A stretch of DNA of 64,000 nucleotides from Callorhinchus milii (GCF_018977255.1 NW_024704742.1:42906001-42970000), one strand, 5' to 3'; positions 6,248 through 62,379 are shown, numbered from the stretch's first letter. Made by a program: numbers and translations. Notes: a model not told the origin generated them from the letters alone.

Positions 6248-6615
6248 ATAATAATAATCCTTGCATTTGATATAACACCTTATCACATCTTCTAGACATC
6301 TCAAAACTCTTCACAGAATATACTGTAAAGTGAATTGACTGTCTATTTATGGGCGAAACACGGCAGCCAATTAAGCACAGCAGTGTCCCACAAACAATCG
6401 TGGATTGAGTAACCAAATTATTATTGTTCCTTTTTACACATTATTATCCCTGGAAAAGCAATCTGCCAATCGACTAACAACAGGGTTCCTACTTACAGCT
6501 CAGTATACAGGGGTATGTGGAAGTAAGGAAACTTGCCCAAAATTTTGCCCTGCTGGGAATAGAACTCAGATCTCTCTCTTGTGAGACGATCGCTCTAACC
6601 ACTGAGCTACAGAAA
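6248..6615 (-). mobile_element. tRNA-derived SINE (family A, long form)
   Basis: A/B-box head, extra internal segment, (TTA)n tail. Confidence 0.85.
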
Positions 6616-6639
6616 CACCACGGACAAATACCCAACTTT

Positions 6640-9949: not shown

Positions 9950-10360
9950 TTTGTCAGTTCTGATGAAAGGTCATCGACCAGAAAGTTTAATAATAAACCC
10001 TGTATTTGATATCATGCTTTTCACGTCTTCTAGACGTCTCAAAGCGCTTCAGAGAATATACTGTAAAGTGAATTGACTGTATATTTGTGGAAAAAAGCGG
10101 CAGCCAATTGCCCACAGCAGTGTCCCACAAACAGTCATGGATTCAAGTGATCAATTTTATTATTGTTTTTTTTGAAAGATTATTATCAGGCATGTGGAGT
10201 AAGGAAACTTGCCCAAGGTTTTGCCATGCTGGGCATCGAACCCAGTCTCTTGCCTGCAAGGCAAATGCTCTCACCACTGAGCTACAGGAGTTAATTCACT
10301 TTCCTCTCTCCATAGATGCTGCCTGACCTGCTGAGTGTTCCCAGCGACTTCTTTTATATT
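9950..10360 (+). mobile_element. Second copy of the Penelope-like/hammerhead element, split by a SINE insertion
   Basis: cagttCTGATGAaaGGTCatcGACCaGAAA at 9955-9984; element resumes at ~10290 (ttaattcactttcctctctccatagatgctgcctgacctgctgag). Confidence 0.75.
9990..10288 (-). mobile_element. tRNA-derived SINE (family A, short form)
   Basis: tRNA-like head (gtagctcagtgg...gggttcgatgccc) and L2-like tail. Confidence 0.85.
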
Positions 10361-16499: not shown

Positions 16500-17460
16500 T
16501 TTTTTGATCAGTCAAATGTTTGACACATGTGGAAACCCATTACATGCTTAAGAATATCCGCAAACAGAGTTCCAGGCATCCCACCCCCACATGGAAATTT
16601 CAGAGATGTTTATTTGAATGGAATGCGTACTCTTTCTCTGGAAGGACCCATCCTGCATATATAATTTCGGAAAGTATTAGGTGCAGGTTGGCAAAAGCCA
16701 AGGCTTGGGGATTCCAGAGCGTGCGTTGGGGTACTGCTGGAGTCTAACCAACTAAAACCACCTAGCTTGCCGTTGAGAGCACTGCCTGGCAAGCTTTCCC
16801 ACTGCTTGTCCAACTAGGCCCACCCTACCCATTAGGGCTTTGGCTTGCAGGGTTAACTGGAGCTATAAGATCAGCCATGAACAGGCTTGAGGGGGATGAA
16901 TGGCCTACTTCTGTTTCTATGAAGTGGGAAGTCTCTGACCCCAGTGACTGTTCTGCCTTCCATGTCATGTTAATGAGCTAGGCTGAATGAGCTGTCATTT
17001 TTTTATACAAAAACACTCAGTTCTGACGAAGGGTCGTGGACCCGAAACATTGACTCACTTTCCTTTCTCCATAGATGCTGTCTGATCTGCTGAGTTTTCC
17101 CAGCTCTCTCTGTTTTTGTTTCAGATTCCAGCATCTGAAGTATTTTGTGTTTTGTCATTTTTTTATGACAGCTGGGCATAGTGTGGGCTTGATTCTGACA
17201 TTCCATTGAGAAACATATTACCTTGGAGCCAGTTTAGCTCCAAGGATATCCCATTTACCTCACCCATAAGGAGGACAATCGCTAGTTGGCCATTTGATTT
17301 CTGACAAGCGTGCGTTTAAGCTGTCACTAGGTGGATGGCAGGTACAAGGAACTCTATGCGAGGGTGCTGGTGGGCCACACAGCTCAGCACGAGATGTTTG
17401 AGAGCATTGCCACCATCTTTTGCCTTCAGCTCAGATACACATCTGTTCCCATTGAGCGAA
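16500..17460 (-). mobile_element. Unrecognised ~0.9-kb non-coding repeat (family X), near full length, interrupted by a CR1 tail and the hammerhead element
   Basis: Collinear with copies at 1-550, 2335-2930, 31750-32280, 34420-34780 and 53598-54165. Confidence 0.75.
17007..17152 (+). mobile_element. Short Penelope-like terminal-repeat element with a hammerhead ribozyme core and 14-bp TSD
   Basis: CTGACGA-a-GGGTC-gtg-GACCC-GAAA at 17023-17047; flanks tgtcatttttttat at 16993-17006 and 17153-17166. Confidence 0.8.
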
Positions 17461-20400
17461 AGCAGCAGCTGTTTACCTCGCTGCACAGTAAAGCATCTGC
17501 AAAGATCATTTGCTTGCTAAGACGTTTTGCTTTGAAAAACAAATATCGGTTTTAAAATAGTAAAAGCAATCTATATTTAACAAAGACTCCTCTGGATATG
17601 TTACATTTCTTTGCCAAGCTAACCAATTTTCCACTGACAATGTTTTTGATGCACTATTCAAGACAAAATAGACACTTTAAATGTACTAACTGTTGTACAT
17701 GTGGAGAAGCACTGGTTCATGGTTTGTTTTTCAAAGCTTTTGGTTTATTTAGCATTTCAAAGAGATGAGTTCTTTATTTTGGTATCCAAGCTTTGCAAGT
17801 CCCTCACTGTGATAAGCTTTGAAACCAGTTATTTTCATAAGCCCAAGTTGTTTCAACATTATTACAGACAGATGGAAAATCGTAGCTAAGTAGTGAGCTC
17901 TTTCGAACCTATAACTATCCACATTTTTCTAAATTAAGCATTTCAAGTGAAAAATACTGCAGTTTGTGATCTGGGGCATAGCAACACAGTCCACTCTTCT
18001 GATGACGACTGGTTGGATCTTTATATTTAAACCTATTTGCTGTCCCCCCCGTGCCAATAGTTGTCATGAACCGCCATATATCAAGAGAATAATAATGTTC
18101 AAATGGAAGATCAAGTACTTTGAAGAGCTAAAGTATGGTACAACAGATTATCCTGTCTTAGGCAATTTGCCTGATTTAACAAAGTTAACATCAGATGAAG
18201 TAGAATGGACATAAATATCCAATGTGGGTGTAATTGCATGCAAAAAAATTAAGTGAACTGTGCATTTACATATCTGACTGATCAAGGTAATAATTTGGTT
18301 GTCAGAAGTTTAATGACTCATTGCAATCATACTGTAGGTCAAAATTAGTGAGAAACGAAAACTAACGCTGGAATATTCATATGACTTTACTCTTCAACCT
18401 GGTCTACTTCCACAGACAATATTTTCCCACCTCTCAGTCACAGCAGAAAAGAAACTATTGTGTCCCATCGAACTTGTGCTAATTTCAGTCTGTGTCTATC
18501 CTTAGGCATGTGTTGGGCGCCTCAGGAATGTATACCCAGATGAATCCTATTTACCCTGTACATGAATGATTTGGAAATGGGGATAGAATTCTGTCTATTT
18601 AAATTTGCTGATGATATCAAATTAAGGGGAACACAACTTAGGAAAGGGATTTGGAAGTATTAGTGGATAAGCTCTGAAAACAATAATACAGTGCAGGACA
18701 ATGAAGAAAACAAAGGCAGAAGAATGGGAGAGTTTTTTCAGAGAGCCAGCACAGGCACGATGGGCTGAATGGCCTCTCCTTATGCTACAAATTTATGTTG
18801 GGTTAAGTGATCTATGCTGCATTTTTCTAACCTTTAGTCAAAAGCACTCAACATGCAGCACTTTGATTCAGAACACAAATGTAGTAGTGCACTTCAATAC
18901 TTATTCCACTCCTACATGGTCCCTTAAAAGGTTTAAGTTGTTTAAATGAATGGGCTGAGTGTGTGTTTCATGGACCATTTTTAATATTAAACAGTCAGTC
19001 GCCCAATCTACTTCTAAACATTAAAATACTGCAAAACTGACACACTAAAGTTCACGGCATGTACTGAGGGCACTTAGTTTCTCCGAAATTGGGTGTTTTT
19101 TTTAAACTTCCAACAGGAAGTATAAATCAAGTCATTTTGCTTCCAGAAATGTCAATTTGTAACATCTAAAGTGATCTTGGTTGTTCTAGTTTGTATCCTC
19201 TCCAGGGCAAAAATCTCCTATGATTAGCTGAACCAGAACTGCATACGGTATTAATCAGATTCTAACCAATGCATTGCATAGCAATGATTGTGTCTCTGAT
19301 TCTACTCTATACCTTTACTGATGTGATTTTGCATCATATTGTTCTTTTTTATTCCATGGGTGTGTGTGTGAACCCATCTCCCACTACTCAGTGGCAAACC
19401 ATTGAACCAGCATGTAGCAATATAACCCATTTTTAACAATCTATTCTTTGTTACTCCAAGGACTGGGAAATCAATAAAGCTAAGCTCCTGCAGGCAGGGA
19501 TAGTGGAGGAAAATACAAACAGCTAATTTCTTGCCAGCAATAATAAGGTTTACATTGTACTGACATCCGTGAAAATAAGTTCCACTGAAGTAAACGTTGC
19601 AAAGAAGCTGAAAAGTCTAAATGGTAAATATTGGCATGCTTGCTTGGAACAATGATAATAACCTAATTCTCTGATGGAATCATTTCATTAGCTGAAAATC
19701 ATGGATTTCATTTACTTTTTTATCGTAAATCCTCATCTGTTTTTGTAGATAAGGCTTAAATAATTAGGCTTGTACTTAATCTAGTATAAAGCATCTTATT
19801 TATTCCTCTGGTTTGTAAGATACAATTACTCACTGGTATCATGCTTATATCAGAAGAGGTATTTACTTGTAGAGGTAGGGCTAGATGAATTGTTTAATAA
19901 AAAGCAGAACATACTGGTTGGTTTTGTGATATTCTGGTGTAGTCAATGCTAGAGTTCCACCAACAATACGTGCTCTGATTTGATACTAATATCTTCAATA
20001 GATTTTTTTCTTAAATTATATTTCATCTGCACAATGATTTTTTTGTATAAAGGCACAGCTTTATTTTTAATATGAGTTTGGTGTGTGTGAGTGTGTGTGT
20101 CGGGGAATTACCTGAGACTGAGTGAAGACACCCAAAGGTGGAGCCAGGATATCTAATCTGTGCGGCGTAGTGGAAAAAAGAGGTAGAAGTTATTGGCTAT
20201 TAGGCTGACAATAAATGACCCAATCTCATTGGATCAGTGAGGTGACTGACAACAGAGCACTGGGGAGTGTGCTTTCGAATCGCTCCAGGACGCTGCCCTA
20301 CGTGAAGGGCACTATATAAATGCAAGTTGTTGTCGTTGTTCCATGAGGGCAGTGATCTCACAAAGAAGAATGAAGAGGATGAATGATGACCTTCTGCCAG

Positions 20401-21699: not shown

Positions 21700-21958
21700 T
21701 CTGGCTTTTTGAAGCTTGAGAAGTTGGGGGTGTCAGAAAGGTTACTGCAGGAATAACTGGCTTGTGGCAGTGGAGCATTCATCATGATGTGGCTTTAAAT
21801 CTTTAAATTTGAGCTTTTTCTATCATTGTGAAGCAGAATTTTCCAAGCATTAGATTGTTCACCCACTAATAGAGAACATGAGCCGAGTTTAAACTATTGT
21901 AATAATAAAGGTTGGTTTCAACCTATTGATGATGTATTCTTGCAATAGAAATGCTGCT
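21700..21958 (+). pseudogene. Decayed 28S rRNA fragment (3' domain V / peptidyl-transferase region)
   Basis: ggtgtcagaaaggttactgcaggaataactggcttgtggc...tatcattgtgaagcagaatt..ccaagcattagattgttcacccactaatag...gatgatgt matches conserved eukaryotic LSU rRNA, with many CpG-type substitutions. Confidence 0.9.
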
Positions 21959-29707: not shown

Positions 29708-30045
29708 GGAGTCCTGAAGCTCAGTGGTTAGAGCACTCGCCTCACAAGTGAGAGACCTGGGTTCGATTCCCTGCAGGGCAAAATGTTGGACAAGTTTCCT
29801 TACTCCACACGCCTGTTTACCTAGCAGTAAATAGAAACCAGGTTGTTAGTTGATTGGTAGATCGCCTTTTCAGGGATAATAATCCCTCAAAAAAAAATTT
29901 GGTCACTGTTTGTTGGGACACTGCTGTGTACAATTGGCTGCTACGTTTTAGCCCATAAATATACAGTCAATTCACTTTACAGTATATTCTGTGAAGCGCT
30001 TTGAAATGTCTAGAAGATGTGAAAAGCGCTATGTGATGTGAAAAG
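29708..30045 (+). mobile_element. tRNA-derived SINE (family A, long form)
   Basis: ggagtcctgaagctcagtggttagagcactcg...gggttcgattccc head; shared 3' body. Confidence 0.88.
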
Positions 30046-30269: not shown

Positions 30270-30765
30270 TAATAATAATAATAATCCTTGCAATTGATAT
30301 AGTGCTTTTCACGTCGGGAGGATGTCCCAAAGCGCTTCACAGAACACACTGTCAAGTGAATTGACTGTATATTTGTGGGCGAACGCGGCAGCCAATTGCG
30401 CACAGCAGTGTCCCACAAGCAGTCGTAGATTGAAAATGACCAATTTATTATTGTTTTGGGTTTTGGAGGGATTATTATTAGGCGTGTGGAGTAAGGAAAC
30501 TTGCCCAAGGTTTCGCCGTGCCTGGAATTGAACTCAGGTCTCTCGCTTGCAAAGCGAGTGCTTTAACCACTGAGCTACAGGACTCCACAGCAGTGTCCCA
30601 CAAACAGTCGTGGATTGAGTGACCAAATTATTATTATTTTTTTCTTGAGGGATTATTATCAGGCGTGTGGAGTAAGGAACCTTGCCCAAGGTTTCGCCCT
30701 GGTGGGAATCGAATTGAGGTGTCTTACTCCGAGACGAGTGCTTTAACCACTGAGCTACAGGATTC
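30270..30765 (-). mobile_element. Tandem family A SINEs: full copy 30270-30586 plus 5'-half copy 30587-30765
   Basis: Two heads (ccactgagctacagga) ending at ~30586 and ~30765. Confidence 0.88.
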
Positions 30766-62069: not shown

Positions 62070-62379
62070 AAATAATAATCCTTGCATTTGATATAGCACT
62101 TTTCACGTCTGCTAGACGTCTCAAGGTGCTTCACAGAATATACTGTAAAGTGAATTGACTGTATATTTGTGGGTGAAACGCGGCAACCAATTGCGCACAG
62201 CAGTGTCCCACTAACAGTCATGGATTGAGTGACCAAATTATTATTTTATTTTTTTCTTGAGGGATTATTATCAGGCATGTGGAGTAAGGAAACTTGCCCA
62301 AGGTTTCGCCCTGCCGGGAATCAAACCCAGGTCTCTCGCTTCAAAGTCGAGTGCTCTAACCATTGAGCTAGAGGACTCC
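62070..62379 (-). mobile_element. Full-length tRNA-derived SINE (family A, short form), intronic
   Basis: Complete head to (TTA)n tail. Confidence 0.9.

Follow-up and report, generated by a model that had tools for sequence, protein, structure and literature searches.

How a hammerhead ribozyme motif comes to stand in an insert of only 146 bp is the question raised by positions 17007-17152 of the window, the whole stretch of 64,000 nucleotides from Callorhinchus milii that was analysed here. Minimal hammerhead ribozymes (min-HHRs) are known from the terminal repeats of animal Penelope-like elements (PLEs), and most of the motifs are single or form opposite-strand pairs 100-700 bp apart (PMC4209133; Cervera & De la Pena, 2014). 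They are characterized by a helix I of 4-5 bp, a G10.1-C11.1 pair and palindromic positions 15.2-16.2 for a dimeric helix III, and their activity in vitro is low (PMC4209133). The original prediction took the insert for a solo, independently inserted unit of retrozyme or SINE type, derived from a Penelope terminal repeat. The present analysis leads to a different description of the unit: the insert is best taken as a brief PLE retrocopy that was dead on arrival, copied from the front end of the element and bearing a decayed minimal hammerhead.

The insert, its target site and its hammerhead motif

The features of the locus are as follows, where 'unit' refers to the repeated PLE sequence of which the insert is a copy and RT to reverse transcription.

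16700-16998, unstranded: dispersed host repeat, left part ('family X'), from comparison with genome paralogues
16993-17006, unstranded: target-site duplication, left copy, TGTCATTTTTTTAT
17007-17015, minus strand: inverted mini-arm of 9 nt, ACAAAAACA, the reverse complement of 17111-17119, ending at putative RT start site 1
17016-17152, plus strand: forward arm, PLE leader unit positions 10-146, 94-98% identical to 40 scored genome copies
17019-17055, plus strand: minimal type I hammerhead motif, by direct reading and descriptor, with the features of metazoan PLE min-HHRs (PMC4209133)
17019-17022 with 17052-17055, plus strand: helix I, AGTT with GACT, direct reading
17023-17029, plus strand: core CUGACGA, direct reading
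17030, plus strand: extra unpaired A, direct reading
17031-17035 with 17039-17043, plus strand: helix II, GGGTC/GACCC, with loop GTG, direct reading
17044-17047, plus strand: GAAA, direct reading
17047-17050, plus strand: helix III remnant ACAU, direct reading
17048-17051, plus strand: C-A-T-T, direct reading
After U 17051, plus strand: predicted cleavage site, from the position in the motif
17075-17152, plus strand: ATG and 26 open codons, putative start of the PLE open reading frame (ORF), open to the end of the unit and continued at locus L114
17119-17123, plus strand: putative RT start site 1 at unit 113-117, where tail-less arms terminate, from inverted-arm ends and loci L051 and L052
17124-17152, plus strand: 'tail', the ~33 nt between RT start site 1 and putative site 2 (unit 146-150), from arm-end comparison and the available parts of PMC8557442 and PMC11167929
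17153-17166, unstranded: target-site duplication, right copy, TGTCATTTTTTTAT
17177-17480, unstranded: dispersed host repeat, right part, from comparison with genome paralogues

The duplication around 17007-17152, which had been described as exact over 14 bp, is present: both direct reading and a repeat search of the window place TGTCATTTTTTTAT at 16993-17006 and at 17153-17166 with 100% identity, and this pair is the sole direct repeat of 9 nt or more within 16900-17260. Its flanking position bears out the claim of an independent insertion with a target-site duplication. The 3' end of other genome copies of the family is commonly ...GTGTTTTGT(T), so that the first three nucleotides of the right duplication (TGT) could belong to the element and the true duplication would measure 11-14 bp; the forward arm may then reach 17155, with TGT common to element and duplication. 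At the opposite end, ACAAAAACA (17007-17015) was found by repeat search to be an inverted copy of 17111-17119 lying outside the forward unit, and in other copies of the family longer inverted arms, of up to ~105 nt, begin likewise (ACAAAAACAGAGAG...). Folding of the 146-nt insert was no better than that of its shuffled versions (z -0.39).

The insert does sit within a dispersed repeat, as predicted; host repeat adjoins it on both sides, and 231 candidates for this repeat are present in the genome. Eight host-repeat paralogues have ~50-60 nt exactly at the insertion point that the window copy does not have, and no clean empty site for the window insertion was found among the paralogues. The flanks of the insertion at 16990-16998 and 17165-17173 are inverted copies of each other, perfect over 9 nt (AGCTGTCAT / ATGACAGCT), and the rebuilt target before insertion is a perfect hairpin with a T6 loop, AGCTGTCAT-TTTTTT-ATGACAGCT; the host-repeat paralogues differ there.

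All the hammerhead parts that had been placed at 17019-17055 were confirmed on reading. G 17031 pairs with C 17043, which corresponds to the G10.1-C11.1 pair, the extra nucleotide A 17030 stands before it, and the conserved core CUGANGA...GAAA is present together with U16.1 and an H17 that is not G. A relaxed min-HHR descriptor (helix I of 4 bp, CTGANGA, 0-1 extra nt, helix II of 4-8 bp, GAAA, NN, T, not-G) gave one match on both strands of the 64-kb window, the motif at 17019-17055, and no match in 200 first-order Markov versions of the window; on sequence grounds, the motif is no chance match. The strict descriptor, which adds complementary 15.2/16.2, rejects the window copy because ACAT is non-palindromic (C-A mismatch). 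In the hammerhead search suggested earlier, our own relaxed descriptor finds the motif and only the motif. Rfam does not recognize it: hammerhead models gave no match at the gathering score in the 64-kb window, and those for types I, II and III, HH9 and HH10 gave none at E up to 10 in 16900-17260 or in 20 better-preserved loci. The Rfam hammerhead models expect a real helix III.

Conservation of the core, which had been proposed as a test together with covariation in stem II, is evident across the genome, where exact matches number 646 for a 32-nt family hammerhead pattern and zero for the pattern reversed as a control. The helix III letters in the first 100 matches listed are ACGT in 59, ATGT in 21, ACAT in 19 and ATAT in 1. 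The family majority has thus retained the ACGT, the 15.2-16.2 palindrome of which is lost from the window copy, and the ACAT found there is read as CpG decay from an ancestral ACGU, in agreement with the decay from A-CG-U already suggested. Covariation fared less well. In an alignment of 54 copies (50 distinct rows), the only pair varying on both sides is 10.1/11.1 (GC 38, GU 6, AU 4 and other 2 of the distinct rows), and the covariation score was reached by 93 of 500 shuffles, which is weak and not significant; the hammerhead assignment therefore rests on the descriptor match and on the PLE context. Minimum free-energy folding and cofolding of three natural hammerhead segments yielded alternative pairings and not the dimeric hammerhead. 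The sole compensatory difference found is in helix II of a sister family, 'B' (500 exact genome matches to its own motif), the hammerhead of which has AGGUC/GACCU in helix II and a helix I of 6 bp.

The motif agrees with the published features and with its context as a minimal type I hammerhead of PLEs, as originally proposed. Like metazoan PLE min-HHRs, it has type I topology, the CUGANGA...GAAA core, a 4-bp helix I, an unpaired nucleotide between A9 and G10.1, and G10.1-C11.1; helix III is the palindrome A-CG-U in the family majority, and the motifs, remote from full elements, are for the most part solitary or in opposite-strand pairs (PMC4209133). The differences are that the palindrome of the window copy is lost (ACAU), that covariation within the genome is weak, that the motif is known here from sequence alone, and that helix II has 5 bp, compared with 7-8 bp in the Schistosoma families (PMC4209133). 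The window copy is most likely inert, since no promoter belonging to it lies upstream and the change from ACGU to ACAU has disrupted the helix III palindrome.

Other repeats in the window were also recorded. A 5'-truncated copy of the family B hammerhead occupies 10289-10352, starting with GTTAAT... just 5' of the predicted cleavage site, and adjoins a tRNA-like SINE head on the minus strand (10227-10286). This head is one of five tRNA-like matches (29710-29781, 62306-62377, 30513-30584, 10227-10286 and 6546-6616) with the common beginning AGTCCTG.AGCTCA.TGGTTAGAGCACTCG..., which are probably heads of a tRNA-derived SINE family and not tRNA genes. An isolated, AT-rich and degraded 161-nt match to positions 2826-2984 of eukaryotic LSU rRNA (21753-21913, 104 bits) looks like a pseudogene or retrocopy fragment.

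The parent element and the place of the unit within it

The 146-bp insert has 3259 first-look candidates in the genome of ~0.99 Gb. The 40 copies that were scored are 94-98% identical, and most of them span query positions 11-15 to 146, followed by TGT(T). Short copies with flanking duplications are common, given this number of candidates and the 8-15-bp duplications seen in members of the family. Six of the 30 loci in the first sample have more than 500 bp in common 5' of the unit, and translation of six aligned loci showed that the long copies contain, in order, a GIY-YIG-like C-terminus, a stop, an untranslated stretch of ~320 bp (the 3'UTR) and the unit.

The GIY-YIG peptide of the long copies has 1867 first-look candidates in the genome, and a 470-amino-acid open frame at locus L044 has 2424. 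This frame is 43% identical to residues 486-900 of a 904-amino-acid protein, P0006 (E 3e-117), including the YIDD/FIDD motif region. P0006 matches the Pfam families RVT_1 (32.6 bits) and GIY-YIG (27.2 bits, above the cut-off of 22.6), and the RVT_1 cut-off is passed by P0006, P0001 and P0018. The L044 fragment has no RVT_1 match of its own because the N-terminal half of the domain is missing, and the peptide of locus L029, which scores 20.7 bits for PF01541, just below the cut-off of 22.6, aligns through the GIY-YIG of P0006. Just before its nuclease, P0006, as a homologue of the family ORF, has C-x4-C-x2-C, which we take to be the published PLE motif preceding the nuclease. From the homology to both domains, the parent of the insert is an endonuclease-bearing PLE with a reverse transcriptase as well as GIY-YIG at the C-terminus. 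Derivation from Penelope is upheld by the long copies, in which the unit stands 3' of the ORF for both domains and of the ~320-bp 3'UTR.

Genome searches yielded no full-length or tandem copy of the subfamily, that is, one with pseudo-LTRs around a full ORF. Several loci were rejected as full-length parents. A '913-amino-acid open frame' (L043:585-3143, minus strand) is spurious, being made up of a PLE GIY-YIG fragment and, continuous with it in frame, a LINE ORF that has endonuclease and RT domains; L051 and L052 have no unit 5' of their ORFs; and of the eight N-terminal loci, seven are members of another subfamily, in which the junction of unit and ORF is occupied by a different, AC-rich segment. 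In this second subfamily (L113, L116, L117, L111 and L052, 5' of the ORF N-terminus), the AC-rich segment (..CCGACACATGCATAC..) replaces the GT-rich tail, and the stretch compared contains CTGATCA and no intact CUGANGA core.

The link between unit and ORF is found at one of the eight N-terminal loci, L114. A forward arm of unit 110-146, which adjoins an inverted arm, reads through there, without a change of frame, to the N-terminal coding region common to other PLE copies, and in the window the frame that begins with the ATG at 17075 is open through the end of the unit. On the basis of this one locus, the unit appears to be the PLE 5' leader together with the start of the ORF. The ~136-nt unit would hold first the minimal type I hammerhead, then, after a further ~55 nt, an ATG, and last the initial ~26 codons. 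It would also follow the ORF stop and the ~320-nt 3'UTR in transcripts of tandem or read-through type, and from RNAs of this origin it would come to lie at the 3' end of every longer copy. The earlier view of the unit as a free-standing derivative of a terminal repeat is thus better replaced by that of a 5' leader with an ORF start, which would stand at the 3' end since reverse transcription starts internally.

Two-arm copies and the origin of the insert

Copies were sampled by their 3' ends, so that their reach at the 5' end would not decide the choice. The final 65 nt of the insert found 1255 candidates; 40 were scored and 28 new loci were fetched, so defining a sample of tail-bearing, well-preserved copies. 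Unit position 10 is not passed by any of the 28, and in 20 of them one arm reaches unit 10-17. A head-to-head inverted arm is present in 20 of the 28; it ends ~33 nt short of the other arm, and in each of the 20 composites a single arm has the tail. Forward arms start at unit 13-63 and end at 145-150, and inverted arms run mostly from unit 10-17 out to 112-121, with an outer end at 112-121 in 16 of the 20 composites and at unit 44-92 in the other four, which are shorter. The 8-15-bp duplications enclose the whole composite, for example at L069, L072, L073, L080, L083, L090, L093 and L094. The long PLE copies L051 and L052 end at unit 114-116.

Copy lengths are bimodal and not graded: three of the 40 scored copies of the tail sample (L004, L007 and L027) run on for more than 500 bp, and no copy ending within the ~320-bp 3'UTR was seen among those examined. 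The start of the unit, CAGTTCTGAYGAAGGGTC, has 925 exact genome matches, and 316 when preceded by 9 nt of the 3'UTR; at least one third (34%) of the well-preserved unit starts therefore lie in longer copies, and the sharp 5' limit holds for part of the family. The copies are not random-length truncations, a point on which the original prediction had depended, as there is a sharp 5' limit at unit ~10-15 in the tail sample, with at least 34% of exact unit starts continuing upstream. Many contigs of unproven kind also break at unit 13-15, which has no bearing on expression. In contigs of this kind, L029:1537-1574 (unit ~48-85) exceeds the remainder of the unit 10-50-fold in summed word depth; the stretch is common to family B and probably to further repeat families.

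The two-arm loci are near-perfect hairpins of ~100 bp, for example L090:75-266, L083:71-265 and L071:61-253, and could yield hairpin RNAs. Matches of these loci to plant microRNA precursors (40-49 bits, below the gathering score) were rejected as artefacts of the long inverted arms.

Insertions of this shape have been described for PLEs. In PMC8557442 (Craig, 2021), their hallmarks are an inverted, 5'-truncated copy beside the insertion and a 30-40-bp tail that is frequently confined to one end; the same combination of inverted neighbour and one-end tail, with arm ends ~33 nt apart, characterizes 20 of the 28 sampled insertions. For Poseidon PAc of the lizard Anolis carolinensis, PMC11167929 (Frangieh, 2024) describes two adjacent internal RT starts, some tens of nucleotides inside the ORF, with the tail between them, cutting and extension of both target strands, and a hammerhead that overlaps the ORF start. 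According to the same paper, uncleaved RNA is the main template, the hammerhead is dispensable for insertion in vitro, and PLE min-HHR cleavage takes place only with the protein of the element.

The explanation that we consider probable is that the insert is a by-product insertion of the endonuclease-bearing PLE, in which the 5' leader was copied from a short RNA, with two internal RT starts and priming from both strands. The PLE protein would initiate cDNA synthesis within the RNA, at two sites separated by the ~33 nt of the PLE 'tail' (unit ~113-117 and ~146-150), and both nicked target strands would serve as primers. With a template RNA beginning at unit ~10-15, each cDNA would be only ~100-140 nt long, and head-to-head joining of two cDNAs would produce a short inverted composite enclosed by an 8-15-bp duplication. 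The two arm ends (unit ~113-117 and ~146-150) appear to match two RT start sites as in the accessible portion of PMC11167929. For the window copy, one cDNA would have reached the 5' end of the RNA (17016-17152) and the other would have stopped after 9 nt (17007-17015); the mini-arm ACAAAAACA at RT start site 1, taken with the full forward arm, makes the window insert a two-arm composite of which one arm was aborted at 9 nt. Arm ends do not pile up at unit 46, the predicted cleavage site, in the 28-locus sample, and there is no sign of HHR-cleaved templates. The ribozyme would be a passenger that is not needed for insertion, the templates being uncleaved RNAs.

The 5' end of this RNA, at unit ~10-15, may correspond to a transcription start. 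A TTAAAAA box lies ~26-29 nt 5' of the unit limit in the six aligned long copies, and CCAGTTC at the limit resembles an initiator; the TATA-like box is altered in the one family B copy that shows this stretch. The promoter and transcription start of Drosophila Penelope lie inside the pLTR, as stated in the available part of PMC2377424. The CAG at the start of the unit was considered as a splice acceptor, as in Drosophila Penelope, and rejected for the short copies, which keep the CAG and end there.

That the short unit is instead an independent non-autonomous lineage, either SINE-like or a 'non-LTR retrozyme', with an internal promoter of its own, processed by the hammerhead, perhaps circularized and moved in trans by PLE proteins, seems unlikely to us. 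The short copies, which are numerous, show discrete ends and duplications, as such a lineage would, and a 2026 preprint (10.64898/2026.07.22.740005) treats animal retrozymes, in the part available, as non-autonomous PLE derivatives with 'solo' monomers; the promoter of Drosophila Penelope, for its part, is internal and TATA-less in the sections of PMC2377424 at hand. The present copies share with the animal non-LTR retrozymes of that preprint, as described in its available text, a small non-coding unit, a type I hammerhead, a relation to PLE terminal repeats and 'solo' monomers. However, retrozymes are defined there by tandem HHR units and circular RNAs, whereas no head-to-tail tandem unit copies occur at the window locus or the other loci examined, the nearest case being L010, with two same-strand copies 125 bp apart. 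No arm starts at the predicted cleavage site, so that cleaved or circular templates are not indicated. Moreover, short and ORF-linked units show no diagnostic differences over a 50-nt alignment, with 94-98% overall identity, and most short copies are inverted two-arm composites, as expected of PLE two-strand priming on a short RNA. The unit has no tRNA or other Rfam match, and a search for an RNA polymerase III-type head (tRNA, 7SL or 5S) found no Rfam match on 16900-17260 at E up to 10. The retrozyme- or SINE-like character originally assigned to the unit is not sustained by these results, from the lack of tandem arrays in the loci examined and of a tRNA or Rfam match to a sequence indistinguishable from ORF-linked units and the usual inverted composites.

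It is somewhat less probable still that the short copies are ordinary 5'-truncated PLE insertions caused by poor processivity of the reverse transcriptase, with a 5' limit produced by a block at the hammerhead stem or by sampling. Heavy 5' truncation of PLE insertions is known from the available portion of PMC8557442, and single motifs were called 'probably truncated PLEs' in PMC4209133; the spread of forward-arm starts over unit 13-63 in the sample and the at least 34% of exact unit starts that continue upstream agree with this. However, a block at the hammerhead should stop cDNAs 3' of helix II/I (unit ~37-55) and not past the 5' edge of the motif, and in the tail sample the 28 new copies of the 40 scored stop at or after unit 10, while L004, L007 and L027 continue for more than 500 bp. 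None of those examined ends in the ~320-bp 3'UTR, and the lengths are thus bimodal. Origin of the insert as a solo pLTR, through recombination of the terminal repeats at both ends of a full element, an event between direct repeats that would retain the duplication, is highly improbable, as the repeat common to tandem PLE copies would include the ~320-bp 3'UTR, yet the insert starts at the unit, and the 9-nt inverted mini-arm and the inverted composites are not products of recombination.

Relation to known insertion systems and biological meaning

Copying of a short leader RNA from two internal starts, the reading preferred here, places the family close to PAc. As in PAc, the hammerhead would be at the junction of pLTR and ORF, two adjacent internal RT starts would enclose a tail, both target strands would be used, and the template would be uncleaved RNA (PMC11167929). 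The differences concern the ATG, which is ~20 nt after the hammerhead here and at the start of stem II in PAc, and the region of the start sites, which is GT-rich here (GTTTTTGT / GTGTTTTGT) and AC-rich in PAc (PMC11167929); the sister subfamily in the present genome is AC-rich there. The C-x4-C-x2-C just before the nuclease of P0006 may also set the family apart from PAc. The arrangement can also be set beside a process outside the PLEs. In twin priming or 5' inversion of LINE-1, one arm starts from the poly(A) and the other from internal microhomology. The PLE composites are alike in that both target strands would prime cDNA and give an inverted segment within one duplication-flanked insertion; unlike in LINE-1, both arms copy the same stretch of RNA, from what appear to be two defined internal start sites.

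Both the element and the ribozyme motif are of known kind, and the insert is an ordinary member of its family. For a mechanism demonstrated until now chiefly in vitro and for one lizard element, namely two internal RT starts, the tail between them, priming from both strands and uncleaved templates, the family provides support within a genome, in another host and in what seems to be another PLE clade.

A wider reading, which we put forward tentatively and hold to be somewhat less probable than not, is that the 'orphan' minimal hammerheads, which number thousands in this genome, are mostly not decayed full elements, here and by extension in other PLE-bearing animal genomes, and constitute distinct 'strong-stop' retrocopies of the first ~100-140 nt of a unit-length PLE mRNA. 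Such retrocopies would arise because reverse transcription starts just inside the element's own ORF and both target strands are primed. This offers a testable reason for the vast excess of single and paired minimal hammerheads over full PLEs. If it is true, each event would leave a near-perfect hairpin locus of ~100 bp, and these loci could steadily supply hairpin RNAs and small RNAs directed against the element.
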